From assembly GCA_008632985.1 (NCBI GenBank), contig QPGO01000227.1, positions 1-64,000 of the forward strand: 64,000 nt of DNA, written 5' to 3'. Below the pieces are notes generated by a model that worked only from the letters and a program-made list of their open reading frames with translations, did no database searches and was not told the origin of the DNA. This stretch comes from Psammoneis japonica (Eukaryota). Positions 973-43,299 of this stretch are shown one piece after another. The number at the start of each line of letters is the position of its first letter. The stretch's first letter is position 1. A program made the translations under genes and the position numbers.

Positions 973-1632
973 TTAAACAGATCACAACTATGAACAAATT
1001 TGCTGATGCTCTGAACAACTGTCATTTACGAAGCTGTGCTTCGATTGACTCTGTTGACAAACACATCCGCCGAACCCTGACTGTGCCGGTGAAATCAAAT
1101 CCCAAGCAATCATGTGTTGTGTTGCGTCGTGCGCATGTGTTGCGTTGCCTTGTTGTTTGTTGTTGTTGTTTCGGGTTGTCCTTCGGCGCCGTTTGTCAGA
1201 TGCAGCTGACATGGTCTTTTGACAACACTGCACACACAATGCAAACCTGCAATTGCAAGAACCATTCAATGCGTTCATGCAAACCCAAGCTGCCTTTCTT
1301 TGTCCAAGACTTGTTCCAGACTCAGGTGGCGCGCACTTGCCCCTTTTTCGCACCCTGTCAGAATTTTTATGCACCATCCAATTTGAAAAAAATAAATGTT
1401 AAATCTACTGTCAAAATATTTTTATATTTAAATTCCGTCTCGTAGGTCAATGTGACTGTTGCATGTCAGCGTGCGAGTGTGTGGGAAACACGCGGAGGGA
1501 TGCAACCTTGTAGTTTGCTCCTCGCCTCACAAAGCAGCTGCACAACTTTCTTTTTTGCAAATCGTTGAATCAGTCCAAAGGCTTGTGCTTCAGACACGGA
1601 CACAAAAGAGCATGTGGGCAACAAACGAACAC

Positions 1633-4600
1633 ATGCCTCGCTGCAAAGGCATTGGCCGCAATCACAAATCAGGCACTGGGCGGAACCAGCAGGCCTCAAG
1701 CCGTGAAGTTTCTTCTGTTTCATCCTTGAGGAATGCATCCACTTTGGCTGCTGGCTGCAGTGGAGATGTCGCCTCTATGAATTGCGAACATCGTGTCTCG
1801 TCTACAGCAGAGGGTGCAACCTTTGCCGAAGTTGCAGTTGGTGCTACCGTCGCTCCCGACCAAAACCAAAACAGAGACGACAGTTTGAATGTACAAGAAT
1901 CTGCCGGTGCACCATCTGATCCAGCCGATGCCACGGGAAACATCTCCATTGTCCCCCCACGGGAGAGCGCCACAAAGCATCTTTCATCACACAAAAGAAA
2001 GCGGGAGAGCGCCACCAAGCGTCTTTCATCATACAAAAGAAAGAAAATTGAGAAGGCAGAAATAGTCGAAGCTGGAACGACCCACCCATTTGCATTCACT
2101 AAGGGAGGCAAACAAAGAAGCAAAGCCGCTGCTGAGAAGGCTCGGAGAAAAGAAATTTGGAAGCTTCTTGACATAGTGCAAAACCTTGACTCAGAAGAGC
2201 AGCGGGTTTCCGTAGTTCAAGGTTTCCTAGAGCACCGCGAAATGACGTCAGTTTCAAAATCGATAGGGTACTATCTTGAGGAGGAACGGCAAGCAGCAGT
2301 ATTATCGTACAATCAGCAACAGAAAATGATAGCGCGAGCCATTGAAACAGACAAACAACGAGGCCGTCCCGACGATGACCGAAGCAATTTCGTTGACAAC
2401 CTGTTGACGGCATCCCAAGCGTCCCCTGACAAAGCACCTGCGCCAAAGAAACTGTTCAGTGGCTCTGGCATGTCCTCCAAGACGCTCAACCGTCGAATGA
2501 TGAAAGCCAAGGAGAAACGTAAAGATTTGATAGCCAAGGCCAAAGGGGTGCGATGGTCTACAGGGCGTAAGCGGAAAAGGTGGCAGAAAATTTCGACGGA
2601 GATTGAAGACAAGCTGGAGAATTGGATACGAAAACACGAGCTAGTAGTTAACTCTCCCATCACTAGCGACACACTCCTGGTGAAAAATCGAAAAACGGGA
2701 AAGAAGGAGAGAAAAGGTAAGTTGCTTTTGCCGGTGTCGGTACGAGAACTCCACAACAGCTTGATCCTACCTGAATCTGCGGGCGGGCTGAAAGAAGCCC
2801 GCAAGGAGGATGGCACGGTATTAATAAGCGACACGATGCTTCGTTCTCTCCTAAAAAAGCTGACGCCAGAGCTTCGAAAAATGACTGAGCGACACAAGCA
2901 AATGTGCGGTTGCGAGGCATGCATTGTGACTGGAACCCTACTCCGTGATCTGTATGCATACAGGTCAAGAGCTGCGACCAGAATGAAAAATAGCATTGCC
3001 GGCCTTCCCAGCAATGAGAAGTCCGCAGCGGAGAGGAAGTTGCATGAATACACAAGTTTAATATACACTCCCGACGGTGAACCCAAGTACAGGCGACCCG
3101 CGGATGCCACCAAGCTGTTGCAGTGTGCAAATGTTGGTGAGCTCGGTCATCCTCGATGGGAATGTGTGTTGCGTCGATGCAAGCATTGTCCAAAGTACCT
3201 TCCACCTGAACCCGAGCGATCCGAAGTATCTAGTGCGACAACAGATATATCGTTCCACACCTATGCACCCCACACAAGATGTTCTGAGCATGGCATTCTC
3301 CCCCTGAACTCCGAGAAATGCGACCGGTGTGAGGCCCCGGCTAACAAAGAAAAGAAGGGGAAAGTACGAACGAGGAAGCTGCTTACCCTTTACAAAAAGC
3401 CAATAGGAGTATTCCACAAGGATTATTTGAAACCGGCGCTCGAAAAGATGGCGTACCACTGGCCACATGTGACGATGCTGGGAAAGAATCATTGCGGCAA
3501 GCTTCGAAAGGAGACATTCGCTCGAATGGTAACGGACCTATACACACACCGAGACTATGCAGAGCGACTGACTGAAGCAATGAATAACAAGATTCAGTCG
3601 GAACACTTCGGACAGAACAGGGACTTGTCGATGGAGGGATGCTCACTGGAATTCTTTTCTGATGAAATAGTAAAGAGATATCGCGAGACGGGGGAACTGC
3701 CCACGGTCGAGGATAGCACGATGGAGTTCCATTCGCATCTTTCTGATAACTCAAAGCAAAATGCAAAGTACACTCACGCGCACATGTGTGAGATGTTGAA
3801 TTACTTGCGAAACAGAGGCATTGTATTGTTGAACAACACCTTGTGGGACAACACTGATGGATGCTTGTGCCAGTATCGATCCGCTCTTGCCATGTACTGC
3901 CTTTCCGTCCTAGCAGTCAAATACCAGATAGTCATCAATCGAGCCATTGGCGCCCCAGGTCATGGCAAGGACCTAGTCGATGGTTTGAATGCCACAGACA
4001 AGCGCTTCTTGCAAGACCTGTTCAAAATTCCATCAACACCAGCGGACATTAATGACGAAAGAAAGATGGAGCCGCACTCAATGACAGGGGACGAAGACAA
4101 TAGCTTGGCAAAGGTTGCCGCCGAAGCCTTGAGCAATCCATCAAGGATCTCTGGTGTAAAGGGAGATAAGAAACACGCGAAGCGTGAGAGTGAAGCTAAA
4201 ATGGACAAGAGAGAGTACCACGTGCAAAACCCAGATGATGTGCTTCACAAAGGATTGGACAAAAAGGCAATTGGATACGAGAAGGGGAGCCGCAATGGGC
4301 TCATGTCGCATCACAACGTACAGGCGGACCACAATCTTGGCGTGGGTCGGGTTGCAAACCGGCGTATCCCCTGCGGATGCAAACCTTGCATGACGCAGCT
4401 TAAGTTGCCTTGGCAGCCAGGTGTCAAGCCTGAAGAGCAACAACGCTATGCTCCCTCGACTGATTGCGTGTATCGTGACATATTTGGATCATTTAATGAC
4501 TGGCGGATCATAACATTGGTGGACAGAAATGAGCGAGATAAGGATGATGACGAAGAAGTGTACGAATCTGTACTTGCCGGTATGACTGAGACAATGTATG

Positions 4601-5145
4601 ACAAAATCCAAGCTGGTGGATTTGGAGCTGTGTCCACAGAAGATCCTGAAGCAGATGGGCATTATTTGATGAAATGGAAGAATGGGCCATACACTCTACA
4701 AGATGACGTAACCCTGTCCGAGTCCAACCATTTCAAGAGAGGCGATCAAGTTGTCGAAGGTACATACTTGACCAAAGTGCCGAGAGCAAAAGGCTGGTAC
4801 ACAAAGGCACCTGAAGAAAGTGAGGAAGAGCAAACAACCTTGGTTAGAGTTCAGCATGTGGTTGCAGGGGCGATTGAGCTGTCTCCCGAGAGTGATTCAT
4901 TAGAGCTTCCACGGACATGCGACAAAACGGCAGCACGAAGACTCGGCCCACTCCACATAAGTCAAAATGATCACAACATAATTGTAGACCAGATTTCCCT
5001 CCGAGAATTCCTTGATTATGAAGAGAACAGAACGACGAGTTCTACAGATGGGGAGGGCGCTGATTGGGAAGGTGACAACGACGATGAAGACTTCGATGAC
5101 GTTAGCGATGAAGACAGTGAGGAGGAGCCACATGAGTGCTACTAA
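1633..5145 (+). CDS. Sola2-like DDD transposase
   Basis: Motifs DYAERL..KIQSEHF, HLSDNSKQ, WDNTDGCLCQYRS and APGHGKDLVDGLNA match the Sola2 pattern (DFAENY/QSxHW/SDGxxxQYK/HGKGxxDG). It has Cys/His clusters and an acidic tail. ATG at 1633 is chosen as the likely start, although the ORF is open from 1459. Confidence 0.8.
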   Translation: MPRCKGIGRNHKSGTGRNQQASSREVSSVSSLRNASTLAAGCSGDVASMNCEHRVSSTAEGATFAEVAVGATVAPDQNQNRDDSLNVQESAGAPSDPADATGNISIVPPRESATKHLSSHKRKRESATKRLSSYKRKKIEKAEIVEAGTTHPFAFTKGGKQRSKAAAEKARRKEIWKLLDIVQNLDSEEQRVSVVQGFLEHREMTSVSKSIGYYLEEERQAAVLSYNQQQKMIARAIETDKQRGRPDDDRSNFVDNLLTASQASPDKAPAPKKLFSGSGMSSKTLNRRMMKAKEKRKDLIAKAKGVRWSTGRKRKRWQKISTEIEDKLENWIRKHELVVNSPITSDTLLVKNRKTGKKERKGKLLLPVSVRELHNSLILPESAGGLKEARKEDGTVLISDTMLRSLLKKLTPELRKMTERHKQMCGCEACIVTGTLLRDLYAYRSRAATRMKNSIAGLPSNEKSAAERKLHEYTSLIYTPDGEPKYRRPADATKLLQCANVGELGHPRWECVLRRCKHCPKYLPPEPERSEVSSATTDISFHTYAPHTRCSEHGILPLNSEKCDRCEAPANKEKKGKVRTRKLLTLYKKPIGVFHKDYLKPALEKMAYHWPHVTMLGKNHCGKLRKETFARMVTDLYTHRDYAERLTEAMNNKIQSEHFGQNRDLSMEGCSLEFFSDEIVKRYRETGELPTVEDSTMEFHSHLSDNSKQNAKYTHAHMCEMLNYLRNRGIVLLNNTLWDNTDGCLCQYRSALAMYCLSVLAVKYQIVINRAIGAPGHGKDLVDGLNATDKRFLQDLFKIPSTPADINDERKMEPHSMTGDEDNSLAKVAAEALSNPSRISGVKGDKKHAKRESEAKMDKREYHVQNPDDVLHKGLDKKAIGYEKGSRNGLMSHHNVQADHNLGVGRVANRRIPCGCKPCMTQLKLPWQPGVKPEEQQRYAPSTDCVYRDIFGSFNDWRIITLVDRNERDKDDDEEVYESVLAGMTETMYDKIQAGGFGAVSTEDPEADGHYLMKWKNGPYTLQDDVTLSESNHFKRGDQVVEGTYLTKVPRAKGWYTKAPEESEEEQTTLVRVQHVVAGAIELSPESDSLELPRTCDKTAARRLGPLHISQNDHNIIVDQISLREFLDYEENRTTSSTDGEGADWEGDNDDEDFDDVSDEDSEEEPHECY

Positions 5146-8900: not shown

Positions 8901-10127
8901 TTTTTGAAGTCTTCTGTTGTGACGGGATTGGTGTTTGTTGATGGCATTGCCACTTCCTTGTCCATTGCATTTTTCCGACAGCCCTCCAGGCATTGAGTCA
9001 TGACGTGTTGTCGAAGGGACGACCGGATTTGTGCCACCTCTTGTGGCATCTTCTTGCCATTGGGCGGCACCGTCTCCACCTCACCAAGTTGTGGACGTGC
9101 CTTTTGGTGTGACCACAAAAGAGCAGCATCCTCTGGTCTTGTGGGGTTGGCCCCTGTCGTCGGATGGAAAAAGTCTCTTGGACAATCCAATGGACGATTG
9201 GGTGCTGTCATTTTTTCCCCTGGATTTGTTGCAGAAGCTTCCCACTGCATGTCAGATCACAATGTTAGCTTCCAAATGCACACTTCGATTTCAAATGCAC
9301 CCACCTGTGTTCCCCGCCATTGCAACATCTGTCCTTGACGGGGTTGTGTTTCCCTCTGTTGAAGTGTTTGCCCTCGATGTGTTTGTAAGATCAAGGCTGA
9401 CGACCGACACCTGTGTCTGATGAAATGAATTCGTCATTGTGTTTTCGACTTCTAATCGCTTTTTACACTTGTGGATGGTCCGGGACGAGCCGAATCTGTT
9501 TGACACAATTGCAAAGTCACGGTTGCATGTTCTCATTGCACGGTTTTTGAACTGTGTTCAGTTTTGTTCTTTTCTGCATTTTTCATTGTTTCAATCAAGC
9601 ATTGTTGTTCTGAAATGAACATTGACAACCATGTCGACCTGTGTGTCAAGAAGATTGTTCTTTCCTCCCATTTGAAACAAAATTTTCCTCAAACAAAAAT
9701 TGGGTTCTCATTGGTTCACTTTTGAATGTGTGATTTTCCACAATTGAAGTTTGATTTTTCATGTGTGTTCTTTTTTAAAGTGCTCGCTTCATCTACGTTG
9801 TTGAATGAAATGCATTGTGCAATCACACGATTGGGTGGGAGTGCACGCGCGCGTGCGTGCTGCTCTTTCAGCATGTGGAACATGTGTGGGGCCCTGCGCA
9901 CAGGGCTTGTCTGCAAATGCGCAGTGCAGCAGAATGCACGTGTTTTGCGCTTTTGGTGATTGAGAGCACATGCGTTGCTCCACCTCATTTTCACAAATCC
10001 TCTGCGCTGCGTAAGCCCATCAACAGAACTGCGATCCCTCCCCTCTTTTCCATCCAATCATCTTTTGGGACTCTTCTTGAATCTTGCATCTTGCTCTTTT
10101 GTGCATTGAACAATCCCAAACGACGCC

Positions 10128-11500
10128 ATGGACGACATGGCAAACAATTGGGGGTGCAATTTGGTTGCCGTTAGCCCGCGTGGCTTAAAACGCAATGGCG
10201 AAGATTTGATGAATTCTTCCATGGACATCGGCCACCACAAGCAGTTAGAAGAAGTTGTTTTTCGTCACTTTGATGGTGAATTGCTGCTGTACAAAGTGAT
10301 GCCAAACGGCTCCGATGCAAATTTGTTTGCAGTTGATTCTGTGACGGGAGGGCACAACGACGGATGTTTGATTGCATGTGGAAGTTATGTGGCCGGTGAT
10401 CATGGGCCCATCCACTGTTGGACCACCAGCACGTTCAGTGCAGAACATGGTCCGAGCGCGGCAATGCACCCGGACGACGTGTTCAACTCTTTTACACGCA
10501 ATCACACCATTGCGCTGCCGCATCACATGCCAGGCACTCTGAGCTCCGCGGAGCTCAGTGAGTGCGAAAATGATTGTCTCAACCACATTCATCTCCGTTG
10601 TTTGATGCAGGCTGTAAAGAAGGTGCCAATCACTGCATTGTTTTTAGAATTGATGCTGGCAAACAATGGCGCAACACTCAGCGACAACTTTCTAGAATCT
10701 CTCGGTCGGTTGGCTCACCACCATTCCTTTGAGATTGTTGTTGACGAAATTGTGACAGGCGGGCGCAGTGGATGCATGCTGTCATGCCTGGCTAAACCCA
10801 AGCATTTTGTTGATGCTGTTGCCTGTGTTGCCATGGGCAAATGGCTGCAAGCTGGCACCGTTTTAGCAAAACCCGATCATTGCAATCGGTTTTGCAGCAT
10901 GACATCATCTCTTCCCAATCGTGGCACCTCCACGGGCATGGATTGTAAACAAATTGTCATGACATGGAAGACTGCAACTTCACAGTTTTGTCTCACAGCC
11001 GAGCGTCGACAAACTGTCCTAAAGAAACTCAAAGTGACAGAGCAAGATGCGTGGGGCAGCGGCTTGCTTGTGTTTGCTCCTGTGAAACGAAGTGATCTGA
11101 CGCCAGCGACCAAGAATCATTTCCTTCCTTTGCTTTGCGCCACCCCATTGGACAACGTGAAAGTCCAAAAGCACGATCAGTGGACAAAGCCTCTTGTGAG
11201 CCAATGCATCATTGATGGATGCCGCTGTTGGTTAAACGCACACCCGCACACGGACGAGGAAATGAATGGCATGTGTGGGTTGCTCAGTCATTTTGCGGAT
11301 CAACCCGCGGGCACGTGTTTTCAAACTAAGGGGCTCATGATGAATGTCCTTGGTGGGAAGCCTCGCACACTGCCGCAAACGTGCCAACTGTTGCGTGCTG
11401 CAGAAAAGGCCGGGCTTGTTGGCAAACATTGGTGACTCGCAAACGCCTGCATGCCTGGAAATCGTTGGCCCCGACAACCATGCCAAGCAAGAAGAATTAA
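10128..11500 (+). pseudogene. Class-III PLP-dependent aminotransferase-like protein with short C-terminal extension (cargo gene B, hypermutated, 1-nt frameshift near 11425)
   Basis: Class-III motifs appear in order: NGSDANLFA, GSYVAG, ALFLELMLANNG, IVVDEIVTGGRSG and MGKWLQAG (putative Schiff-base Lys). The duplicated copy at 11766 onward supplies the in-frame tail GKTLVTRKRLHAWKSLAPTTMPSKK. Confidence 0.78.
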
Positions 11501-12152
11501 CCCACAATTGCATTGTCTTGCCGCTTGCATTTGCGCAACCTTGTTTGGACAGCCTTCGGCATTTCGAAAAAAACTGCTTCCTCCACTGCTGATTTTGGAT
11601 CTTCTGCCAGTGCATCCATTTCAAATGCATCATTCCCCAAACACCAATTCAACCACTGAATGTCTTTTGCCGGAAGAGCGAATTCATGATTGGAGTCGAA
11701 GATCCAACCACCATGCAAAGCAATGCAGTGATTGTTTGTCAACCGACAAAGAACAATGTCATCGGCAACTGTTGCGTGCTGCAGAAAAGGCCGGGCTTGT
11801 TGGCAAAACATTGGTGACTCGCAAACGCCTGCATGCCTGGAAATCGTTGGCCCCGACAACCATGCCAAGCAAGAAGAGTTGACCCACAATTGCACTGTCT
11901 TGCCGCTTGCGTTTGCGCAACCTTGTTTGGACAGCCTTCGGCATTTCGAAAAAAAAACTGCTTCCTCCACTGCTGATTTTGGATCTTCTGCCAGTGCATC
12001 CATTTCAAATGCATCATTCCCCAAACACCAATTCAACCACTGAATGTCTTTTGCCGGAAGAGCGAATTCATGATTGGAGTCGAAGATCCAACCACCATGC
12101 AAAGCAATGCAGTGATTGTTTGTCAACCAACAAAGAACGATGTCATCGGCAA
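11385..12152. repeat. Tandem duplication, about 381-bp unit x2
   Basis: caactgttgcgtgctgcagaaaaggccggg... starts at about 11386 and again at 11766. Both units end in tgtcatcggcaa. Confidence 0.92.
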
Positions 12153-15100
12153 TGCAGGTGGTCAAATCGAAGAATCCCCTCTTGCCAGCTGCCATTTTCT
12201 GACGCTTCTTGCATGCACGCCACTTCATTGATGCAGCCAGTGGAGGACAAAGCTTCTGCTTTTGTCCCAACAACATGCCAATGGCGAACTCCAACCATTT
12301 GTTGTTGGTGTTCTCTGATCTGCAAGAATGATCCGTGTGGTTCACAATGTGTCGCTCCATCCTTTCATCTCCAATGTAATTTGGGACACTGGCCAGGCTC
12401 GAAAACACGCATGTGTCTTTCTCCCCTTGTTGATGTTTGACTGGGGGTCCCGAGCTGGGAAATTCCAGCCCGCTTTTATCCAACACGTGACCCTCCGGCA
12501 GTCTGTGCCATTTCTTCCCTGGTTCCCAATCACACATGGCCTTGTACACTGTGGGACATCGCTGCTGAAAATTGGCTCTTGCCCACTCCATGGTGCAACA
12601 GGGCGGTTTCTTCCTTGTGCCAACCCCCACGAATGCTGGCGTTCCCTCCGGACCTTCAAAATCATCATCGGCTGCAAGCCCCTCCTTCGTTGGCTCCTTT
12701 GCTGTCAGCCATCTCACTTTGTGAACCTGACCATTGTTTGTCACGTGATCAGCTCTTTTGCCAATTTGCCTCTTTTGTCTGGCATTGAAAATCACTCTTG
12801 TGTCAGGTTTCTGTTCAGCTTCCTCAATTGCGGCTCGAACAAGGTTCATCAGCCCTCCTCCAATGTCCTTGTCATTCGTCGCTCCAAAATGGTCTTCAGC
12901 AAATGTTCTGCCGTGCTTGAAATCTTCGAACCATCCACACAAAACTGGTCCTTCACAATCAACAGCATCACCTGGCACCTCACTTTCATCCGGCCGTGTG
13001 GCCCGATCGACCCACTCAAAACCATGTAGCCGTTCCAATTCTTTGGCATCCTCACAGTGCGTCCTCGCCTCATGACGTAGATCTTGGTGTTTCTTGTCCC
13101 TGGCAGACAACACTTTTCTTCGTGACACAAGGAGACCTTGATCTTCTGGTTCCGATTCGGACTCCTCTTCCTCTGGGTCACCATCTCCCTCTTGTGGTTT
13201 CGGTTCCTTCTTTTCTCTCTTGTTTCCCCTGGCAGAGAATTTTTTGTCAAGCATCGCCTCCTTCGCCAGCTCTGTAAAACGACATTGTCGGAACAACCGA
13301 TTGATCTGGTGCCAATGCAGTTGTTCCGCTTCTTTGCACCAAATTGCAATGTGTCGCAAAGGTGGCAGAAAGAAATCCTTTTTGTTCAACCGCACTTGGC
13401 GTTTCTCTGGGTCCTTCAGAGTTTCTCTGTCTTCTTGTGCAGCACCAACCAGCAGTTTGTACACTGCACTTTTGCTTTGTGCAGTGCAAATGGGGTGCTT
13501 GCCCGGAACACACATTGCATGATCACAGCAAGGTCCCGCAAGCGCTGAAAACAAAGTTGCTGCTGGTGACAGTCCACCTTGATCTTCCTGGTTGTAATCG
13601 ATGGGAAACACCATGTTGCACGTGTTGCACTTCAAACAGATGCTTTCAAGAAGTTGACATGTGGCTCCATCATCACCCAAAGGCATTTCCATTTCCATGT
13701 CTTCATCTGAATCGCTCCGACTCCGTTGGTGACACTTGGGGTTGAGAACATGCTTCCGGTCATCAGTTCCCAACTCCGCAGTTGCGTTGAACTTGCCCCT
13801 CACACATTTCGCTCTTTGAGCTAGCTCGGAAGTCCTCGATCGAAACGCCGCTCTTTTCCATGTTTCATCATTTGCTGATTCGCTCATTTGGCAGGAGAAA
13901 TTGACGCTTGCGGCAAACAAAGCCGTTGTCTCAAAATGTGACTTAACTTGGTTGGCGTCACTTGCACCCACGCAATGTTGGCAGGATTCGTAAATGCACT
14001 TTCCAATGTCAAACCATTGGTGTCCATCCATGTGTTTTTGCCAGGAATCTTTAAAAGAATCCAGTGTTGCATTGCCAACCATCACCACTGACGATTTGTA
14101 GATGAGGTCTTTCTCTTGATCCACCAAATCTTGGCATTGATCGGCGGGTCTCTTCTTGCTGCTCCAGAACCCAACACGATCTCGCCAATGTTTTACATTG
14201 CATTGGAAATCATCCTCTGTGTGAGAGATGGGCAACGCAATTTTTGCACAACGTGTGGTGACTCTGCGTTTCACCATCAGTGCCCCAGTGTTGTCTCCGT
14301 CCTCTTTGATCAAAGCACTCCAATTCCAATGGTGTCTTGCTCTTTCCCAAGAGGGCTCCTCATTCATTTCCTCTGTGATGTCCTCGAAACCCAAACTTTC
14401 ACAGTGGTGTTGTTTGAGCTTGACTTGACAATGCAGCATTGTGTCCCAAGTGCCAACAACCGTGTAGCCGACAGATTGAGCCAGGCTAATCAGGAAGGGG
14501 CACAACCCATGGTTGTGCACTTTGGCTCCTCTGTCGACTCGAACACAGTCAACAATTGTCACTGGCACCAATTCAATGCACCGATGCAACAATTCAGCGA
14601 CAAGATCAGTTGCCAGTTTGCCACTTTCTTGATTTTTTGGCATTGCACAAATTCCCAAAATGTGAGTGTGTTTGTTGTTCAACAAGTCGACAATGTCGCC
14701 TTCGTTTTCTTGATTAAATTCACAAAGAAGAAAATCCTTTACAGCTGCCCTTGCTTTTTTACTTGCTTCTTTGCCGAAGTCGGATGACAACCCCTTCTGG
14801 TTGTGATGCAACAAAATGCATTTCTTCCCGCGATTGTTCGGCCCGCGTCCAGAATTTGCCAGTGTTGTCAGTGATTTTGGTTCTGTGCTTGGGTTGACCA
14901 CGGCAAACAAGGGACAAGTGCGGTGGACATTGTCCCGCACACGCTTTGACATGTCATGTTTGACTGCATTCACGAAATGCCGGAGCTTGGTGGGAATGTG
15001 TTGAATGTCCCCCTCCTTGGATTTTGATGATTTTGGTAAAGAACCCGCATCTTTCTTTTCCTGAGAAGCATCATTGTCCATTTCCTTAGAATTCACAGCT

Positions 15101-15278
15101 TCCTTGTCCTCCTCTGATGTCCGCATTTCCTCCGGCATTTCCTCCTCCTCTTCTTCCACATCTTCTTCCTGGGAATTGTGGTTGTTCTCCCCTGTGACAA
15201 CCGGATTTCCTCATTCTCTTCTCGGGAAGCCACAACAGCCGCTTTGGCAAGAGCTTTCATTCCATTGTCCCTTGACAT
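11497..15278 (-). pseudogene. Large cargo gene C: GNAT acetyltransferase-like domain plus C-terminal papain-like peptidase domain
   Basis: GNAT-like segment IVDCVRVDRGAKVHNHGLCPFLISLAQ...HHCESLGF reads YYYESLGF after reverting TpA mutations (about 14380-14560). Papain-like Q-C-H-D pattern: QQGEKDTCVFSSLAS...NNHCIALHGGWIFDSN (about 12050-12440). The ORF is 1220 aa and its true start is uncertain. Confidence 0.6.
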
Positions 15279-15321
15279 CGCAGGCGAATCCTCGCTTCCC
15301 TTTGCTGCTGCCTTGTTTGCG

Positions 15322-16270
15322 TCAAACTGTGCAACACAACGAGGGTGCCCCAGCCAGTTCTCCAGGTCTCATTGTTGAAAACCCAATTGGCGGACTGTCG
15401 GTGGGCGACAGACGCGGAAATGCAGGGAAGAGACATGACAGACGGAGACGACCCACCGACAACAGTGGCCTTGGAACATGCATGTTCTTGACAATGTCAA
15501 GGAAAAAGGAGCTTGCGCCGTCTGCCAACACAACCCAGATCAGCCGGTCCCCTTTTCTTCAAACTGCACAACACAACGAGGGTGCCCCAGCCAGTTCTCC
15601 AGGTCTTGTCATTGAAAACCGATCAGCGGAATGTCACTGGGCGACGGACTGGCAGTCCCACTCGTCCGTTGCTGTGCAACCATCAGCAGTTGACGCGGAG
15701 ACACAGGGAAGAGACGCGACAGACGGAGACGACCCACCAACAACAGTGGCCTTGGAACATGTGTGTTCTTGACAATGTCAAGGAAAAAGGAGCTTGCCCC
15801 GTCTGCCAACACAACCCAGATCAGCCGGTCCCCTTTTCTTCAAACTGCACAACACAACGAGGGTGCCCCAGCCAGTTCTCCAGGTCTTGTCATTGAAAAC
15901 CGATTGGCGGAATGTCGCTGGGCGACGGACTGGCAGTCCCACTCGTCCGTTGCTGTGCAATTGTCAGCAGTTGACGCGGAGACACAGGGAAGAGATGCAA
16001 CAGACGGAGACGACCCACCGACAACAGTGGCCTTGGAACATGTGTGTTCTTGACAATGTCAAGGAAAAAGGAGCTTGCGCCGTCTGCCAACACAACCCAG
16101 ATCAGCCGGTCCCCTTTTCTTCAAACTGTGCAACACAACGAGGGTGCCCCAGCCAGTTCTCCAGGTCTTGTTGTTGAAAACCGATCAGCGGAATGTCGCT
16201 GGGCGACGGACTGGCAGTCCCACTCGTCCGTTGCTGTGCAATTGTCAGCAGTTGACGCGGAGATGCAGGG
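15322..16270. repeat. Tandem repeat, 281-bp unit, about 3.5 copies
   Basis: tcaaactg..caacacaacgagggtgccccagccagttctccagg occurs at 15322, 15559, 15840 and 16121 (spacings 237, 281, 281). Confidence 0.95.
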
Positions 16271-16943
16271 AAGTTGCTGACTTTGTCTGCAACCAATTTC
16301 GTGGCAGTGCCTGATGATGATTGTAAAGAGTCAACGAAATGCAGCATGCACACCAAATCATCTGAGATGCGAGATAAAGAAACAACGCACAGACTGCGCC
16401 GTGAGCTCAGCATTGTTCTTGCAGCAGCGATGAAGTTTCGGTTCTGGTGGTGTCTTGCAATGAACCTTCACTAAAGGTCACAACATTGTCAACACTTGTT
16501 GACAAGTTGACAAGAATGACAACATGCAATGGAAGGATGAATGACAACAGCATTGCATGGGCAGCAAAGTTTGATGACAACAGCGGTGTCAGCGGCGGTG
16601 TCATGGATGCACTCTTTTCCGACATTTGTGTTGTTGCAACATGCGGCAAATGCAGTGATGTCATAGAAAAGAGGGGACTCATTTTCTTGTTGAATTCCAC
16701 AATGAGTGCAGAATTTTTGTGGTGTTCTGTTTGTGGCGCTGCAGGCGGCCACAACCAGTTGGCCACGTGAGGGGATGACATGCAAAATTCCGGATTCCGG
16801 TGTTCTGACTCACCCAACATGCATCATCTCTCAATCACGACCAGACAAAGGCGACATCATCATCGCACAATCACATTCTCGTGCAAATGACAAAGGAGTT
16901 GTGAAGCTGTTCTGCTCTCATTGTTTTTCATTGTAGCATCTGC

Positions 16944-19900
16944 TTGCTCAAATTCGAACCATCCATGCATCACAGAAAAGGCAAATGTGACGCTCCCGCT
17001 TGGAGCAGATCCGGCGCTCCCAAGGGAAGAAGGACAAGGAGTGCGCGTCCATCAAGAGATCCGCCGGGTCGCTTGATTCGTCAAAGATCCGAATCGCCTG
17101 TTCAAAGTTCCACAGGTCGGTTGTGGTCAAATCGAAACGACGGATCCAGGGAACGCAGACTGTCCAAACGGCGATGCAGGTCGAGGTCGAATTCCCGCCA
17201 ACGATGAAGGTGTCAATCGCCGTCCCGGTCTTGGTCAAGTTCTCGGTCTCGCTCTTTGTCAAGTTCTCGGTCTCGATCGCGTCATGGACCAGACATCGTT
17301 GTCGTTCTGGAACTTCTTCGCGTGGTTCTCCTTGTCGATCAAGGTCTCGTCATTCTGGGTCTGGGTCTCATTCTCGTCGAAGGCATCGGCGACGGTGTCG
17401 GTCACCATCCATGGGTTACCACAACTCAAGTTCCCGGCACAGTTGCAGGGAACGTTGTGGCGCTGTTCCCTGCTCTCCATGCAGGGATCACCAAGGTTGA
17501 TCGCAATCGCGGCAGAGGTCACGCCAAAGGTCTCCATCTAGTTCACCGCAATGGTCTCGTCAAAGGTCTCTGGATTCTTCCAACAAAAGGTCTAGATTGT
17601 CACCTCGGCGTAGACACAGGTCACCGCACAGGTCACCATCCAGGTGCAGGTCACCCTCCAGGTCAAAAAACAGGTCTCCAACAATGTTGAGGTCACCATC
17701 CAGGTGTCGGGGTCGATCGCGTGTTCGCAAACCCAGGCATTCGTTGCGCTCGCACAGGTTGGGTACATCGAGGAAATCTGAGAGTCGCGGTTGGGACAAA
17801 AGCCATCCTCCCGCACGTTCTGCAGACGACAGCATCTGCTCAAGGAGTTCAAGCAGAACAAGTCAACCTGCCAACAGTGGCACGGTCCCATTTTGTCAAA
17901 TGCGACTCCGCAGAAACAGAAGTGGCAGTCCAATCTCACACCGCACAAGATCTGCCACATCCAGGTCACGCAGCCTGGAATCTCCCCTGGGACGGTCTCC
18001 ACCTCCTCGCAAGCGAAGACCAGCAGACCAGTTGCTTTGCTTGCTGAGTGTGCAGCACATGCGGGAAGAAGCAAAACGCCATGAGGACTTGGCTTCTGTG
18101 CATCACGTCGAGGAACAATCAACAAACAGTGATGTCATTGATTCTGTTTTCTCAAGTCAGAGCGACCAATCATCATCGCATTGGCATGATGGCGCAGTTG
18201 TGTCAGCACTTCCCATTGATTTCTCTGATTCTGATTTGCCCAATGGAAGCAGAGACGAATCATCTGATTGCCATTCAAGCGCTTTTGAGGCAGCACTGCC
18301 CTTGCAGATGCAGCGTCCAACTTTCACTGGCAACTGCAAGACTCGGCGGGAGAAAATAGTGTTGTCCCGTTCCCTGCTGCAAGAAGAGAGCTTGCATGCC
18401 AAAAACATGTTCAATGTTGTTTTTGTGTTTGAGGAGATGATCAGTGCTTGCTTCCGCCACAATTCTGGAAAAGCCAAAGCACTTGACAATTTGGGGAAAC
18501 TGTCTGGAGAACGCAGGCAAAAGCATGCCACCCATCTGCATGTTGTCTTCCAGTCAAAACTGCAGGTTTGCTTGGCAAGCAGAGCAGACATCCCCCACTG
18601 CCAAGTGCCAATTCGGATTTGGCGTTGACACTTGGACAGGATGAAACTGACATCAAATGGTCCTTGTGTGATGTTGATTCCGACCATTGCAATGACTTCA
18701 TGTTGGTGCTTAACCACTTTCCAAACAAACACCCAATCCACCGCATTGACTGGGGCCGATCGCACGTGCTGATTGACAAATGCCATGAACGTGAGTCGAA
18801 AAGCAACCAGGGAAAGAAAACAAGGAAAGGCAATGTTGGCAAGAAAACTGGCAAGAGAAAACGTTTTCAGAAAAAGAAAAGCAACAAGCCCAAGAAAACT
18901 GGGACCCATCTTCAACCAAAGGACCACTTTGCAGATTTCGGCGTTTGCACCAACACAAGCACTACAAGGGAAGGCCATGCTGATGGTGTTGCACGGCCTC
19001 GAGTTGGGAAAGGGACTGAGGAAGCAATGCCTTTTTTGAGTCAATGTCTGAAATTGCGGAGACACTGAATCCCACTTTTACATCTAGATTGTGGCACGAT
19101 GAAGAGACAAAAAACCGACGTCAAGACCACGCGGGTTCATTGCCGGATGCCTCAGCAAATGATGTCGTGGAGGCACTGCGTCTGGCGAATGCCAAATTTG
19201 GCAAAATTACAGATTGCCACTTGGATGAATGCAACGGCCAAAACAAAGACATGACCCCAGTTTTGTCTGTTTCAAAAATCACAAATGATGGAGAAACAAG
19301 AGATGCTGTCATTGCTTGCACCCGCAGTTCTGTAGAAACTGCGGAGAAGAGGATTCGACTTGCCTTGCCCATCACAACATGAGCCATTCACACCTGCCAA
19401 AACTTGCCCGTGCACCGGCAACGACTGGAGCCGGCAATTGTCCATGATCACTTGACAGGATTTAAGGGACACAAAGGAATCAATGCATTAAAAGGCGACT
19501 GCAACATGGAACCAACGTCACACCACCAGCTCTTTCTACACTTCATTGTCGCAATGATTTGACAAATTCTCACTTACGTTGCCGCAGATTGTCGCTGTTC
19601 AGACTTGCTTTGAGGTGCACCCGGCGCAGTCACATTGCTTTGGAGCAGTTGCGTTGGTTCTTTTATCCGTTGATGCCTTCCAGCCACCAAGCGACCCCTG
19701 CGGATTGGGATGTCTCATTTGCGAAATGATGGTCCACGTAAAAGAGGCACATTCTAGAGGCATCCCTCTGCGATGTGCGTCACGCAGCAAGAGACCACCC
19801 TTGCCAACCAAGGCTGAATGGAAAAAACGGAATGATAAAAAGGGAAAGTGGATTTGCGACATTTGGAATGAGCATGCAAACAAGCCACAAAACAAAGACA

Positions 19901-20592
19901 TCGTCTCCATTTACAAGAAACTGATGAATCAGTTGTCTGAATTCTCCCCGCAATGTGACGTCTTGTGTCTCAATCATTCGATTGCGATCATGGCAGAAAT
20001 TGGCCAGCTTCCCATTTGGATGCTGCATTGTTGCCACTGCAAAAAGGATTCCCTCCCTAACACAAAAATTGCCGAAGAACATGGACTGGGCAAGATGGAC
20101 GATGCGGACATGTTCCGTTTGGCTCAAACCACACAGGGTGCATTCACCGTGCAGTTGAACAACCCCGGGGGTGATGACAAGAAAGACACTCACTTCACCA
20201 TTCATTTTGTTGAGAACATTCTTTGCAAAATGTTTCGCTTCTGGATCAGCAAAGGGAGGGTAAACTGCTGCGATGTCCATTTTGCAGGAATGTCATTTTT
20301 TGTTTTCCACGATGAGGCGAATTTTCTTTGTCACTTTGATGGTTCCAGTGACCCCGAAGAGCTGCCTCCCGGTGGACCAATCCAAAACTTTTCATGTGAA
20401 AGTGAGGAAAAAAAGATGGAGGAGATTGCCAAAGAACTGTGTGAGGACAATGATTGGGCCGGGTCGACCTGGGATCATGACCCCATTCAAATTGCATTTG
20501 AGTTCAATTTCAACAAACTGCTGTCTAATCCACCAGAGGCGATGTTGGACATTTTGGCCCAAAACAAAATGTCAAACGCAATGAGGGACTGA
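16944..20592 (+). pseudogene. Cargo gene D: RS-rich N-terminus plus globular region with HxD/RxxxxxYxR (2OG-Fe/TET-JBP-like?) and HhH-like ENILCK motif, frameshifted
   Basis: SRSRSPS repeats run about 17060-18010. Successive plus-strand ORFs 17597-18628, 18568-19068, 19044-19382 and 19579-20592 read as one decayed protein. Motifs are CHLDECN, RDAVIA(C/Y)TRSS and FVENILCKMFR. The domain identity is tentative. Confidence 0.45.
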
Positions 20593-20840: not shown

Positions 20841-23800
20841 TTAGCCGGCTGTCAACCAATCGCCGAAAATGTCCAAGCTGAGTTCCGTTTTCACAAAGCA
20901 TCCATCTCTGGTTCTTTCATTCCACAGATGGCTGACACAATAAAAGCTGTTTAGGAACGTTTCACCATCATCTTCCATCCTTGGCAATGCCAGCACAAAC
21001 TGATGTCCCAAACTGTTGCAAAGATCTGTTGCCGCATCAAATGATTTTCTCCTGTCTGTTGCTTGAACTGGCGCCATCCAACACAAGTCCAAAATTTCTT
21101 CACCTTCCTCATCCACAAATTCTAAAGCAACTGCAGTTGCAGAGGAGCGAGCAGCTCCTTTTTCACCCACTGGTCGAAACAACAACCACACAGTGCAATT
21201 GGACGACACAAGGCCAGCAAAGGGAAGGCATTGCTGTCTTGCCTCCAACAATGTGTTCCAGTTGCTGCAGATTTTGAAGATGCCATCTAGACGTCTGTTC
21301 TTTGATGAACCTTTCTCACTGTCACGTTCTAAAAGCCAAGAAATGGTTGCATGTTGGTGAATGTGACGCAAAGCGATTGTTTGCCAGTCTGCATTGCTGC
21401 GTTTGATGCTGACCTCTGGCCTCACAGTTTGCACACCACTTTCTCCAGAATCGTCACCCTCCCAATGCAGAATGGCCGGTCCATCATGTTGGTGGGATTC
21501 CGCGACTCCCAGCATTCCAAGTGAAACAGATTTCACAAAGTTCGCCTTTTTTTTCTTTTTCTTCTGAACTTCACCGTCGCCTTCTACGGCATCGTTGTCT
21601 GCCTCATCTGAGGGTGCTTTCATCAACCACATGTCCATCTCGACCATTGCATCCAAGCATGTCAAAACCATTTCGTGAAGGTCCCCAACAACACGCTCCG
21701 AAGACATGACTCGGCTCAGACAAGCTTGTGTGGCAGAAGCAAATCGAAGCAACATCCGTGACACACCTGCATGATCCGAGTGATTGTCCATCACCCGTTG
21801 TTGGTGAAGCGCAGGCAGCGCAACCACAACTTTTACTGTCCTTGCCCAAAAGAAGCAATTTTCACTGACCCAGGGACCTGTGCCCCACTTGCTGGTGGAC
21901 AGTGGATGAGCCGCAAAACATTTGGTTGATCGGAGGGACTGGATGGACCGCAAGCATTTGTTTGCTTGCTTTCCAAAGGTTGCCTGAAGCTCAAATCGAG
22001 AGAACAATTTGGACATCATTTCGAAATCACTTTTAACATTGCCCAGACCAATGGTGTGCATTGGTGCATGATGACAACGTGAAAGTGCTTTGGGATTGAG
22101 CCAAGGTGCTGGATGTGTTGGGCAAGGCAGATTGCATTTTGCAGCTGCGTGCACTGTGTCGATGTGGCGTTGGATGACGGCACAAGTACGAAGATGGGCC
22201 GTGAGGTTAGCTTTGGTCCAAAAGCGCTTGGCACTTGGGGTGCCCGGCGGATGTGTTCTCATGTTGTGATGCGCAAACACGATCGCTTGCTGCAACCAGG
22301 GAACAGTGAGTTTGATGGAGGCCAACCATTGTCTTGGGGCGGCCACACGTTGGCGTTTGCGTCTGCGACGAGAAGAATCGGTCGATGTGGATGGATCTGT
22401 GGCCAAGTCTTGAGTGGATTGGATGTCATGTGCCGACGGGTTGAAGACAGTCACTTCCCTGCCAGTGGGAGGTTTTGGTGCACCTTCGCGTTGGTCATGT
22501 GAACAGGGGCAGTCAGCCGGAGCCAGAAAACGAAACGCAGTGTCGAGCACATTCCAGGATGCACAAGCATTGTGTGGACATGTGCTAGAAACAGGAGGAA
22601 CGTTGATTGCAACTGCGCCATCCACTGGTGCTCCTTCTTCCTGTGAATTGTCGGCGACATCAGAAGGATCCTCGGACGTGCTAAAATGGTTGCTCACATG
22701 TGCTTTGCAACAGAGCTGACAATGAGGCAAGTGATTGAAAGAACAGTTTCCATCTACATGGCAGGCATGTTCCCAAAACGTTGAACAGCTGCCATTGTGG
22801 TCTCCAACACGAAACATGCAGGAACGTTCAGGCCGATCCACACAAACACTGAGTTTGCCAGCTTTAACCCGTGTGAGCTTCTGCAGTCCGCCATGGTAAA
22901 ACCAATGGCTTTCTTCAGACAATGACTGCAGTTCGCGCTCAAATGTTGTCTCCACAACTTCATGATTTTCTCCCTTGGACGACATTGCCATGAAGTGGGT
23001 GTGGCGTCCACTGGAAGAATTGGGAGGAGGGCAGCAGGTGTGCGTGTTGAGCCACACTTGATTGCATGACTTCTTCGTGCCGTTGGGATCGAAGTCATCA
23101 CGCCATTCTTGCACCCAAAGACACAACACAAAACCGTCGACATCTTCTTTAAGTTCCATGAACAAGGAATGCACCGCCGGTGTGCGCGAAATGGCAGGTT
23201 GTGAATCTTGAACAATGACGTCCGCATCAAAATAGAACTTGTCAAATTGCGTGGCTTTTGCCAACTCATTTGCAAGCACGTCTTTAAAGGAAACACAGGA
23301 ATGACTGCCATCATCGGTTTTCCTGGGAACAGGATGAGGCAAATTTGGCACAATGGCACGTTTGCTGGACAAATGCAACATTTCAAAATCTTTCACAGAA
23401 GTGGGGACACGAGTCCGACGAAAAATGGACAAGTCTGGATCACGGCTGTTTGTGGCTTGCAGCATGCATTCTGCCAACAATTCACGTTGTTTCTTGGTGA
23501 GTTGTGAAAGCAGGCTAGCCATCACAAGTGAAAAATGTGCCTCTTCTTTGGTCACCTCGGTGACGGGCAATTCGAAAGCGTCAGCTGTCAATTTCTGGAT
23601 GCCTTGTCCGGGGTGCGAATGCTCGTACCAAAAAAAGGCCGGGCTGTTGGAGTCCGGATCAAAGCCTTGTCGGAGATCATCAACACGCAATGGAGGACGT
23701 GAGCCGGCATCATTGACGTCGTAAATCCAATCATCTTGGTTGGAAGGCTCCTTGCTCTCGGAAACAGAGGCGTCATTGTCATCGTTGCACCAACATTCGT

Positions 23801-24140
23801 CGTGTGTGGGCTCCGCCAGCGCACACACGGCATTTACACTGCTTGTTGGTGCGGCTTTCAAAGCTTCAAAGGACTGCACATGAGTTGGAGTTTTGGCGTG
23901 CTTGACGCAGGTTTTCCAATCTTTAAGAATTGGAAGATGACGACCACCGCTGTTTGTGTTGCTGCTGTTCCAGCAGCATTTGCAGACAAAAAAGGAATCA
24001 ACTGAACACTCCGGGTTGAGACATTTGCCGGAACAGAGGCAATCACCCATGTTTACGATGCTGTTGGAGTTGTCACATTGAGTCAATGGAACAGTCGAGA
24101 AGCAATGTTTGCAGCATGTGGAGAAGGCTGTGGAGGCCAT
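20841..24140 (-). CDS. CMC/EnSpm (CACTA/Plavaka-like) transposase, hypermutated
   Basis: 1099-aa ORF with an N-terminal Cys cluster and the motifs EWRDDFDPN, VCVDRPERS and HAPMHTIGLGNVK (DxMHxxxLG-like). These are characteristic of CACTA-family DDE transposases. The ORF starts about 540 bp inside the right TIR. Confidence 0.72.
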   Translation of the reverse strand: MASTAFSTCCKHCFSTVPLTQCDNSNSIVNMGDCLCSGKCLNPECSVDSFFVCKCCWNSSNTNSGGRHLPILKDWKTCVKHAKTPTHVQSFEALKAAPTSSVNAVCALAEPTHDECWCNDDNDASVSESKEPSNQDDWIYDVNDAGSRPPLRVDDLRQGFDPDSNSPAFFWYEHSHPGQGIQKLTADAFELPVTEVTKEEAHFSLVMASLLSQLTKKQRELLAECMLQATNSRDPDLSIFRRTRVPTSVKDFEMLHLSSKRAIVPNLPHPVPRKTDDGSHSCVSFKDVLANELAKATQFDKFYFDADVIVQDSQPAISRTPAVHSLFMELKEDVDGFVLCLWVQEWRDDFDPNGTKKSCNQVWLNTHTCCPPPNSSSGRHTHFMAMSSKGENHEVVETTFERELQSLSEESHWFYHGGLQKLTRVKAGKLSVCVDRPERSCMFRVGDHNGSCSTFWEHACHVDGNCSFNHLPHCQLCCKAHVSNHFSTSEDPSDVADNSQEEGAPVDGAVAINVPPVSSTCPHNACASWNVLDTAFRFLAPADCPCSHDQREGAPKPPTGREVTVFNPSAHDIQSTQDLATDPSTSTDSSRRRRKRQRVAAPRQWLASIKLTVPWLQQAIVFAHHNMRTHPPGTPSAKRFWTKANLTAHLRTCAVIQRHIDTVHAAAKCNLPCPTHPAPWLNPKALSRCHHAPMHTIGLGNVKSDFEMMSKLFSRFELQATFGKQANKCLRSIQSLRSTKCFAAHPLSTSKWGTGPWVSENCFFWARTVKVVVALPALHQQRVMDNHSDHAGVSRMLLRFASATQACLSRVMSSERVVGDLHEMVLTCLDAMVEMDMWLMKAPSDEADNDAVEGDGEVQKKKKKKANFVKSVSLGMLGVAESHQHDGPAILHWEGDDSGESGVQTVRPEVSIKRSNADWQTIALRHIHQHATISWLLERDSEKGSSKNRRLDGIFKICSNWNTLLEARQQCLPFAGLVSSNCTVWLLFRPVGEKGAARSSATAVALEFVDEEGEEILDLCWMAPVQATDRRKSFDAATDLCNSLGHQFVLALPRMEDDGETFLNSFYCVSHLWNERTRDGCFVKTELSLDIFGDWLTAG

Positions 24141-24399
24141 GACTTACACAGACAAAGGTGGAAATGCAAAAATTGTGTTGTGTGTGCGATGCGCCGACAC
24201 AGGCGACAATTGGCAACAACAGAGCAACAATGATGCTCGTCGACAGATCGCCACAAACAAAAATGACGAGATTACGAGCATTGACTGGCAACCATGAATG
24301 CATGCGTGCACATGCGCCAATGACGCTTTGAATCGTCCATCATTGCGTCTTGTTGTGTGTGCATGTGTTCATTGTTCGTTTGCTTTGAAGAAAAACCAT

Positions 24400-29071: not shown

Positions 29072-29469
29072 GATGGGCTCCAATCCCAGGTGGGACTCCG
29101 CAGGGACATTGGGCCCGTAGACTTCCATGTGCAAGCTCTGTGTTAAAGTCATTGATCAATTGTAACATGTGTGATCGCCAACAGAAAAAGAGGCAATTTT
29201 GCGAACGCATCTCCTCCTTCACACGTAAAGCACACAGATGATGGTTTGCATGGGCACATTCTACAGACATTGAAGAACACACCCAGCGCATTTTCATTGT
29301 CACAAATGTTGAAAATAGAAAGCCTTTGGCTTCACAAAATGGGAAGCATGAAACAATTTCGTAGAATGTCACACGCAGCCATCTACGTGCGCGACATGCG
29401 GCGCGATCCAAAAAACTGTTGATGTCACAGTTCAGCACTGCGAGGTCCCACCTGGAGCTGGAACGTGTC
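29072..29469 (+). mobile_element. MITE, GAC family copy 2
   Basis: TSD TTCC (29068-29071, 29470-29473). Ends are GATGGGCTCCAATCCCAGGTGGG and CTGGAACGTGTC. Internally homologous to copy 1. Confidence 0.88.
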
Positions 29470-30249
29470 TTCCTCAGGTTTCCGGAGTTTTCGTCGAAGC
29501 TTCAGATGCCAGCAAATCCATCATGTCAGCTAGCATCCGGAGCCTGGAGTCCCTTGCTTTCTCAGATGTGTCTCCTTCAACCAACATTGATGCTCCTTGA
29601 ACCACCCGTCTGCCCAACCCTTTGTCTGGTGGAGGCAATGGCCACTCCACTCTTGCGGGACGCGGTGAATCGGCAGCCCACCCCACCATCATTTCATGCT
29701 CCAAATTGTGGTTACACCAGATGTCCTGGCATTGCATCTCCGCAGGTGTCTCATTCTCAGGTCGCTCAATCCTTGTCGAGTTCATTGATTGCATCCGTTC
29801 AATTGGCCGAGGTTCAGCAAACAATGACCCAAATGCAATCTTGACATGAAAAGGCCCTTCGTGAACTGCGCGACAAACATGCCAACAAAATGCAAAATGT
29901 GCAATCACAACACACGGAGAAATTGTCAGGCATGCAAGATCAGATGAATGAGATCATCCAGTTGTTACAAGCGTCCCAGTCAGTTTTGTCCGCCAGTCCT
30001 GCGAGGAAGCGACAAAACCAAAATCAGACTCCCAACCGCAGCAACAATGGGAAAGACTCGGATTTTTAGCATGAAGATGGATTTCGCTGCCTCCATCTCC
30101 ACAAACCATCAGGCGCCCTCCCGACATTCATCAGCACCCATTTCCACTGTCCCTTGCACGGGTTTTCTGATGCACCAGCAAGTATCGGCCTTTTTCGCTT
30201 CATTGGGGTTCCACTCTACTTCCTTGCTACAAGCCCCAGTCTTCTCTTT

Positions 30250-42943: not shown

Positions 42944-43299
42944 CTGAAGAGAGACGGAAACGAGCTGATAATCGGCAACATGAGACTCGAATCGACTCTG
43001 CAAACATCTGAGAGGCCTCCTGTGAGCAAACAAAGCTCATAAATAACTTACTTTCGTAACAAATAGTGATGCTGGCGAGTTGTGCAATGGCAGTGGCTCC
43101 AAAAAGTGAGGCAAGAGGCTCGAGCCTCAAGAACGCCAAACGACCGTCGTGGGTACGTCACGATGACGTTTCTCACACGGTTTGGGCGACGAATGGACGG
43201 ACAGCGCACAAGTCTTTCTTTTGCTCACACGACATGGTGGGGGGGGAAGCACACCACACCCTGGTCATGGCACTTGCTCCTGATGGAGGCAACACCAGA

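Follow-up and report, generated by a model that had tools for sequence, protein, structure and literature searches.

A decayed gene in a diatom-like genome belongs to a family predicted to pair a TET-like domain with an amino-acid:DNA transferase-like domain

Transposon-borne TET/JBP genes have been described mainly in fungi, reportedly by Iyer et al. in 2014; related systems are said to have been predicted in stramenopile algae by Iyer et al. in 2013, and the idea developed here may be partly in print. In the fungal elements a TET-like gene has a large transposase-like open reading frame (ORF) as its neighbor, and the partners are of several kinds (Kojima 2025, PMC12730594); the available part of that paper makes no mention of diatoms, stramenopiles or algae. 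Activity of amino-acid:DNA transferases has so far been demonstrated in phages alone, and the main text of the study describing them, as available, contains no word beginning with "eukaryot-" (PMC8989533). In the clusters of phages M6, ViI and PaMx11, according to the available text of the same study, 5-hydroxymethyl-2'-deoxyuridine (5-hmdU) comes from a deoxyuridine monophosphate (dUMP) hydroxymethylase or a T-dioxygenase, with a kinase, and all of these are separate genes; the transferases displace phosphate from 5-phosphomethyl-2'-deoxyuridine (5-PmdU), and attack by a thiolate at C6 was proposed (PMC8989533). Here we describe gene D, the remains of a gene for a two-domain protein in the first 64 kb of contig QPGO01000227.1 of Psammoneis japonica, the whole of which we call the window. 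Our favored reading, held as a whole with moderate confidence, is that gene D is dead, that its family combines a TET-like domain with one like the PaMx11 protein gp46, that intact members would couple an oxidase to a transferase, and that the family is carried by transposons.

The locus resembles the fungal elements in placing a TET-like gene next to a large transposase-like ORF, with partners of more than one kind in the family, and differs from them in its diatom-like lineage, its transferase-like fusion and partner ORFs that belong to no recognised transposase family. Like the M6 and ViI clusters as presented in the available text of PMC8989533, it has a pyridoxal phosphate (PLP) enzyme near the transferase-like gene. 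Unlike the phage clusters, it joins the oxidase-like and transferase-like parts in a single chain. Its PLP enzyme has a different fold type, and conservation of the pairing was not seen. Our literature searches returned no description of a TET-like/transferase-like fusion in diatoms.

Full-length relatives were collinear in tblastn with four window pieces lying in three frames (Table 1), with a summed E of 2e-39 for the relative P0080. The reading frame of gene D changes three times or more, and a single in-frame TGA interrupts piece 3. We regard the copy as a pseudogene with frameshifts and TpA hypermutation, less likely as a gene with unusual introns, and it is not likely that anything in the window copy still works. 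Piece 2 retains the invariant G, R, G and P of the family. The original prediction, made from this DNA alone, had drawn on three motifs, CHLDECN, RDAVIA(Y)TRSS and FVENILCKMFR. All three were found in place, the second reading RDAVIACTRSS, and their positions coincide with columns conserved across a protein family, so that they are not chance resemblances. The same prediction had the gene extend from 18600; a gene is there, but its start lies farther upstream, at ~18392 and possibly at 17597. The Arg/Ser-rich stretch preceding piece 1 (17597-18391) may extend gene D at its N-terminus; the relatives P0054 and P0055 likewise have long N-terminal extensions.

Of 16 window cells at columns with a consensus Tyr, one held Tyr, five held Cys and two held His. 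The C of RDAVIACTRSS occupies the position of a Tyr in several relatives, and PHCQ corresponds to PHYQ in the family; such Tyr-to-Cys and Tyr-to-His cells are the changes that TpA mutation predicts. The ratio of observed to expected TA dinucleotides was 0.11 in gene D, as depleted as its surroundings, and on this ground the earlier suggestion that the element protects itself was not borne out.

An exhaustive HMMER search of 1.84 billion representatives with the 344-amino-acid (aa) C-terminal frame (19558-20589) found 32 relatives at E ≤ 1e-3, three of them at ≤ 1e-10 (best 1.4e-16). Their alignment shows the family motifs CNMDP, NHS..I.S.LGLLP.W and (V/I)ENILCK, and the longer gene D relatives span 698-1186 aa. 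Outside the close clade of one of them, P0061, relatives are only 21-31% identical. None of 22 gene D relatives matched Pfam at E ≤ 0.01, and an Atlas search with the P0061 N-domain gave no usable match.

Fold evidence for the N-domain comes from P0061, an intact relative of 716 aa, modelled with a 42-row alignment (predicted local distance difference test, pLDDT, 92.9; predicted template modelling score, pTM, 0.87) and compared by VIA-align with 48,161 representative solved chains. Only two chains reached Z ≥ 8, NgTET1 (5cg8) and PaMx11 gp46 (8z2m). NgTET1 matched the N-domain over model residues 98-303 (Z 9.0, root-mean-square deviation [rmsd] 3.6, 167 residues aligned), followed by TET2 (9hxv, Z 7.0), CcTet (7vpn, Z 7.0) and CMD1 (7cy4, Z 6.9), while FTO and AlkB homologues ranked below all four TET-type structures (Z ≤ 6.2). 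H258 and D260 of the H-x-D motif were present in 24/24 relatives and N263 in 23/24; R295 of the R-x-S motif was present in 26/26, followed by S in most, and R287 in 25/26. S276 is conserved as well. All of these residues are kept in the window, where R-x-S reads R-S-S. R295 may be equivalent to the 2-oxoglutarate-binding arginine in the last core strand of TET enzymes. The family pattern C-x-C-H-x-D-x-H-N-S may echo the TET motif around H-R-D. The N-domain of the family is modelled as a double-stranded beta-helix most like TET enzymes, with H-x-D, the following N and a C-terminal R-x-S, and it differs from them in that only two strands lie between H-x-D and R-x-S in the P0061 model. The window copy's own N-domain was assigned by collinear alignment only, the modelled fold being that of the relative.

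The C-domain of P0061 was most similar to PaMx11 gp46/PUGT, a 5-PmdU glycinyltransferase (8z2m) whose Pfam family, ADDT (PF18724), was formerly called aGPT-Pplase clade 2. The match covered 227 of 287 residues (Z 8.0, rmsd 4.6) at model residues 313-612. Below it came QNG1 (Z 7.6 and 7.4), then AGOG, OGG, Mag1, MagIII, AlkA and EndoIII, all other long matches of the C-domain being QNG1 or helix-hairpin-helix (HhH) glycosylases. The C-terminal frame of the window, modelled with AlphaFold2 from a 23-row alignment (pLDDT 77.8, pTM 0.79), had QNG1 as its best VIA-align matches (Z 6.9 and 6.7), gp46 next (Z 5.5, 203 aligned), and then AGOG, OGG, MagIII and AlkA. Within ENILCK, N582, C585 and K586 are invariant and E581 nearly so (≥ 90%), and the window keeps all four. 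Alignment of the family with gp46 by hhalign paired the ENILCK stretch with VETILCK of gp46, which contains the catalytic ETILCK. In the gp46 homologues M6 gp51 and ViI gp247, the Cys and a nearby Glu are required for activity, as reported in the available text of PMC8989533. A profile of 53 phage relatives, drawn from 75 IMG/VR loci, aligned collinearly with the gene D family profile over 243 columns (score 30.3, P 0.0027), and the same alignment paired NHS..LGLLP.W with FGPWIGFKVADM. By itself this profile-profile signal is weak and suggestive only. The models and motifs together portray the family C-domain as an HhH glycosylase-like fold most like gp46, with the catalytic Glu and Cys of gp46 and E-x-I-L-C-K in the same late helix. 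The gene D family differs from gp46 in being eukaryotic, in its fusion to an oxygenase-like domain, in an extra beta subdomain after the helices, in the lack of a PF18724 match and in that no partner 5-hmdU kinase was found.

The double-stranded beta-helix and HhH folds that the original prediction had named in advance as its test were both found, the first in the P0061 model and the second in the P0061 and window C-terminal models. These models describe gene D as a TET/JBP-like double-stranded beta-helix joined to an HhH-type aGPT-Pplase-like domain, with NgTET1 at Z 9.0 and gp46 at Z 8.0 for P0061. Our proposal is that its members probably function in the manner of a TET-type oxidase with an amino-acid:DNA transferase attached. 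The gene D family is not placed as a member of either family because it fails both Pfam profiles and a TET residue considered defining is missing from it. If phage thymidine hypermodification is a guide, intact members would use the oxygenase domain to oxidise a 5-methylpyrimidine in DNA, either thymine (to 5-hydroxymethyluracil) or 5-methylcytosine. The transferase thiolate would then attack C6 and link the activated 5-methylene with an amine or an amino acid, and the neighboring PLP enzyme could tailor the resulting adduct.

A metagenome scan with the P0061 clade recovered 18 loci with gene D relatives. In all ten loci longer than 5 kb, a frame of 1127-1137 aa lay after the gene D relative and tail to tail with it, the same layout as in the window, where gene D converges with a 1100-aa ORF. 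The gene D frame was open throughout in nine of the ten, measuring 859-1177 aa where complete on the contig. Two frames truncated by contig ends measured 433 and 652 aa, and in locus L011 the frame is split into 489 and 292 aa. TA observed/expected was 0.49-0.63 in these ten loci and 0.49-0.56 in those with the 859-1177-aa ORFs, and working gene D copies probably exist. BLASTP found no similarity between the window 1100-aa ORF and the ~1130-aa partner ORF (best E 3.1). The large transposase-like ORFs beside the family represent two or more sequence families unrelated to each other. For this reason we suggest that DNA transposons probably carry the gene D family, as they do the fungal TET/JBP genes. 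The ~1130-aa partner (L003:3680-7087, minus strand, with equivalents in L004-L012) has a C-x-C...C-x-H pattern. A MULE/SWIM-like core proposed for it by eye had no tool support and was set aside. One related element is adjoined by a frame resembling reverse transcriptase (L006:6401-9496, minus strand; RVT_1 at E 6.9e-5, under the cut-off).

Several results weigh against the combined oxidase-transferase reading and its transposon setting. The N-domain alignment (26 relatives) contained no column with at least 80% His after D260, and the only other conserved His of the domain, H60 and H80, both lie upstream of H-x-D; the earlier caveat that no distal His was evident holds for the family as a whole. 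A 2-His-1-carboxylate triad is treated as defining for TET/JBP proteins in the available part of PMC12730594, and with no conserved His downstream of H-x-D this triad is incomplete in the gene D family. The N-domain may be inactive or use another ligand. Pfam Tet_JBP matched 0/42 family sequences at E ≤ 5, in a search with no positive control for that model, and ADDT also matched 0/42 at that threshold in a library where gp46 scores 1.6e-27; the 42 aligned sequences gave ten unrelated Pfam matches at E ≤ 5, one member each. PHROGs gave no consistent family (21 unrelated single-member matches, best E 0.0028), and none of these was aGPT-Pplase, amino-acid:DNA transferase or TET by listed description, most having no description. 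A sequence-profile search of the PDB with the family had 0 matches at E ≤ 10. Foldseek against BFVD and the PDB had no match at E ≤ 0.001 for either model, with only 8z2n at E 0.57 for P0061, and no named phage aGPT-Pplase model was returned from BFVD. VIA-align cautions that an arrangement shared by many proteins may account for Z < 8, or for Z < 13 where the proteins are helical, and the values of 5.5-9 found here fall within that range. The score of 30.3 against the phage profile was just above the best of six control profile comparisons (14.4-26.1, P 0.019-0.35). Owing to the Foldseek result and the Z caution, the fold assignment rests on the ranking, the whole-domain coverage and the motifs together; in the ranking, four TET-type structures lead the beta-helix matches and gp46 leads the helical ones.

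The genomic context adds further points of this kind. Phage transferases need a phosphorylated substrate, as stated in the available text of PMC8989533, and a scan of 107 stop-to-stop ORFs of at least 70 aa between 9.5 and 24.5 kb found no HMUDK_hel or P-loop kinase match for a 5-hmdU kinase. The same Pfam library recognises PaMx11 gp50 as HMUDK_hel. A kinase was also not found in the tested ORFs of the related loci. The partner ORFs of the ten loci are 77-100% identical to one another and amount to approximately one element family, or one independent case. Neither the ~1130-aa partner ORF (no Pfam match) nor the window 1100-aa ORF and its eight relatives (none at E ≤ 5) matched a Pfam transposase. 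There were no convincing terminal inverted repeats in 5-32 kb, only short imperfect pairs, and self-blastn found no second copy of the element within the window. With no terminal repeats, no second window copy and no transposase family match, we infer the mobility of the gene D family rather than observe it.

The lack of a conserved distal His would be explained if the N-domain were a degenerate, non-catalytic TET-like module, for example a reader of modified bases, and the HhH domain alone acted, as a glycosylase-like enzyme or a transferase, on bases modified otherwise. The HhH domain is indeed also like the base-excising or base-salvaging QNG1, AGOG and OGG (Z 5.5-7.6). We consider this the best of the alternatives and still unlikely, since H-x-D, N263, R287 and R295 are invariant or nearly so at 21-31% identity, which argues for a conserved ligand pocket.

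Slightly less likely again is that the gene D family is a host chromatin or repair protein, with the window holding a decayed duplicate in a repeat graveyard and the large neighboring ORFs unrelated to it. Such a history would agree with the lack of terminal inverted repeats and of a transposase family match for either partner ORF, with the absence of sequence similarity between the window 1100-aa and ~1130-aa partner ORFs, and with a hypermutated ~6-40 kb tract full of unrelated remnants. It does not account well for the tail-to-tail pairing with an ORF of 1100-1137 aa, which recurs in the window and in 10/10 loci > 5 kb, or for a 204-member near-identical cluster within the 1100-aa family. 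Carriage of a TET-like/gp46-like family by transposons remains our preferred account.

The coordinates of gene D and of the features around it are collected in Table 1.

Table 1 Features of the gene D neighborhood, in window positions.
Feature	Position	Strand	Evidence or remark
Gene D	~18392-20592	+	~700-aa two-domain protein, pseudogene, split over three frames
Arg/Ser-rich ORF	17597-18391 (within ORF 17597-18628)	+	Frame shared with gene D piece 1
Gene D piece 1, start of TET-like domain	18392-18604	+	tblastn of P0080, P0055; PHCQ at 18593-18604
Gene D piece 2, second frame	18676-19023	+	tblastn of P0061, P0080; DFGVCTNTSTTR at 18934-18969
Gene D piece 3, third frame	19086-19559	+	tblastn; CNMEP at 19500-19514
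CHLDECN	19215-19235	+	Contains H-x-D; H-L-D at 19218-19226
RDAVIACTRSS	19299-19331	+	Contains R-x-S
In-frame TGA	19380-19382	+	Inside gene D piece 3
Gene D piece 4, HhH-type amino-acid:DNA-transferase-like domain and small beta subdomain	19564-20592 (tblastn match to 20619)	+	NHSIAIMAEIGQLPIW at 19972-20019
FVENILCKMFR	20206-20238	+	VENILCK at 20209-20229
Class-III aminotransferase-like (fold-type I PLP), 435-aa ORF	10128-11435 (frame 10110-11432)	+	Divergent
DEIVTGGRSG of the PLP ORF	10740-10772	+	
MGKW of the PLP ORF	10833-10844	+	Candidate PLP lysine
Tandem duplication, ~385 bp, 2 copies, 97.7% identical	11385-12152	.	self-blastn
1237-aa stop-to-stop ORF	11500-15210, main part 12150-15210	-	No recognisable family
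Three tandem copies of 281-bp unit, 94-95% identical	15411-16273	.	self-blastn; between minus-strand ORF and gene D
1100-aa ORF, convergent with gene D	20844-24143	-	Multicopy family, no recognised fold

The PLP enzyme that the original prediction set beside gene D was recovered as a divergent class-III aminotransferase-like ORF. Its Pfam Aminotran_3 (PF00202) match had an E of 1.1e-4 and 21.5 bits, under the 30.5 cut-off. There were 39 relatives at 27-54% identity, 16 of which contained PF00202, and the family profile matched nine class-III aminotransferases in the PDB (best 6jix, E 3.2e-6). D212 and K244, the putative PLP-binding residues, are invariant in the family. The window ORF retains 54/58 highly conserved columns at a TA observed/expected of 0.19. 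Three PLP-like relatives (P0025, P0026 and P0027) appear to end in C-terminal Tudor-like modules when their sequences are read, which would suggest chromatin targeting.

The tandem duplication covers the 3' ends of both the PLP gene and the minus-strand ORF, and its second copy (11775-11879) was also matched by the tail of the PLP relative P0021. The last ~130 codons of the 1237-aa frame are read-through, as they run antisense through the duplicated tail of the PLP gene. This frame had no Pfam family, and the Atlas search with it gave no usable match; a Cys...His protease-like pattern near its C-terminus was seen by eye only. The acetyltransferase (GNAT) expected among the neighbors was not found. 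No GNAT family matched any of the 107 ORFs of 9.5-24.5 kb at E ≤ 0.05, and the most GNAT-looking stretch (14221-14883, minus strand), which we guessed to be the one meant, had no pertinent match at E ≤ 10 in either Pfam or the PDB. The Pfam library recognises PaMx11 gp48 as GNAT.

The 1100-aa ORF has eight relatives at 31-48% identity, one of them representing a 90%-identity cluster of 204 sequences. It carries H or C at 13/18 consensus-Tyr columns and still has no stop, being hypermutated yet open. A KDZ/Plavaka label given to it earlier did not hold up, with no Pfam match for the ORF or, a Tudor match in P0007 aside, for its eight relatives; that it is a transposase we infer only. CACTA-like patterns read by eye in this ORF had no tool support and were set aside. 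The relative P0007 has a Pfam Tudor match slightly under the cut-off.

The full reading of the original prediction was of a single, conserved modification pathway made up of the PLP enzyme, the minus-strand ORF and gene D. The genes are adjacent in the window, phage clusters pair the transferase with PLP decarboxylases or acetyltransferases in the available text of PMC8989533, and Tudor-like modules are apparent by eye in some PLP-like relatives and, under the cut-off, in P0007. The PLP-like P0027 and the 1100-aa-like P0007 derive from contigs that both measure 10,555 bp, and P0021 and P0108 from contigs that both measure 6,221 bp, coincident sizes that hint at adjacency and do not prove it. 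Against this stand the related loci: in none of the 18 did the PLP gene, the 1100-aa frame or the 1237-aa frame have a relative at E ≤ 1e-5, and the co-travelling gene set that had been foreseen was not upheld. Nor was a GNAT found, or a kinase in 9.5-24.5 kb, and in the available text of PMC8989533 tryptophan synthase beta, not a class-III aminotransferase, served as the model for the phage PLP enzymes. A conserved pathway of this composition is improbable, and the pairing of the PLP gene with gene D, which is not conserved, may be accidental.

The setting of gene D is a TpA-hypermutated, transposon-type tract in a diatom-like genome. The window is eukaryotic and diatom-like, with a DUF6824 domain at 41744-43033 (minus strand). 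TA observed/expected was 0.22 across 1-64000 and 0.10 within 10128-20592, with CA and TG at ~1.5. The depleted tract spans ~6 to 40 kb and reappears later in the window. By block, TA was 0.02-0.17 of expectation in most of 8-40 kb and 54-64 kb and 0.55-0.70 in 1-6 kb and 48-52 kb; CG was likewise low (0.22-0.32) in the blocks with the strongest depletion, 44-46 and 54-58 kb. This profile fits TpA-to-TpG/CpA hypermutation, which the available part of a preprint reports for Bigelowiella natans, with adenine deamination as the proposed process (10.64898/2026.01.13.699255).

Open frames are weak evidence here, since TA-to-TG/CA changes make no stop codon and can remove TAA and TAG. The 8-23 kb region contained 103 ORFs of at least 60 aa. 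In 50 first-order Markov simulations of TA-depleted sequence, 32 kb each, the longest stop-to-stop ORF had a mean length of 266 aa and a maximum of 390 aa. Only the 441-, 1100- and 1237-aa frames are above that chance maximum, the last of them far above it, and we rejected ORF length as a sign of function. A link between the element and the TpA mutagenesis, also raised by the original prediction, was not upheld on present evidence. It is very improbable that intact members are transposon-borne two-step thymine modifiers whose oxidised intermediates at TpA, 5-hydroxymethyl- or 5-formyluracil (the latter mispairs with G), would cause the TpA to CpA/TpG hypermutation found throughout this genome as T-to-C changes initiated by a TET-like enzyme, unlike the adenine deamination proposed for Bigelowiella.

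Elsewhere in the window, a 1228-aa ORF with no Pfam family lies in the less mutated left part (1459-5145, plus strand), a TPR protein is found at 47529-49364 (plus strand), and a weak RVT_2 (copia-type reverse transcriptase) remnant at 59654-62002 (minus strand). Dispersed and inverted repeats with 84-90% identity, at 29079-30634, 43909-44316 and 34269-34665, suggest additional small elements in the tract.

For TpA hypermutation, which is unexplained, the gene D family offers a concrete enzyme candidate to set against deaminases. If our favored reading is true, a eukaryotic single-chain fusion of TET-like and transferase-like domains predicts hypermodified pyrimidines in some marine algae. Such pyrimidines could be made by mobile DNA or aimed at it, and some algal mobile DNA may chemically modify DNA bases as phages do.

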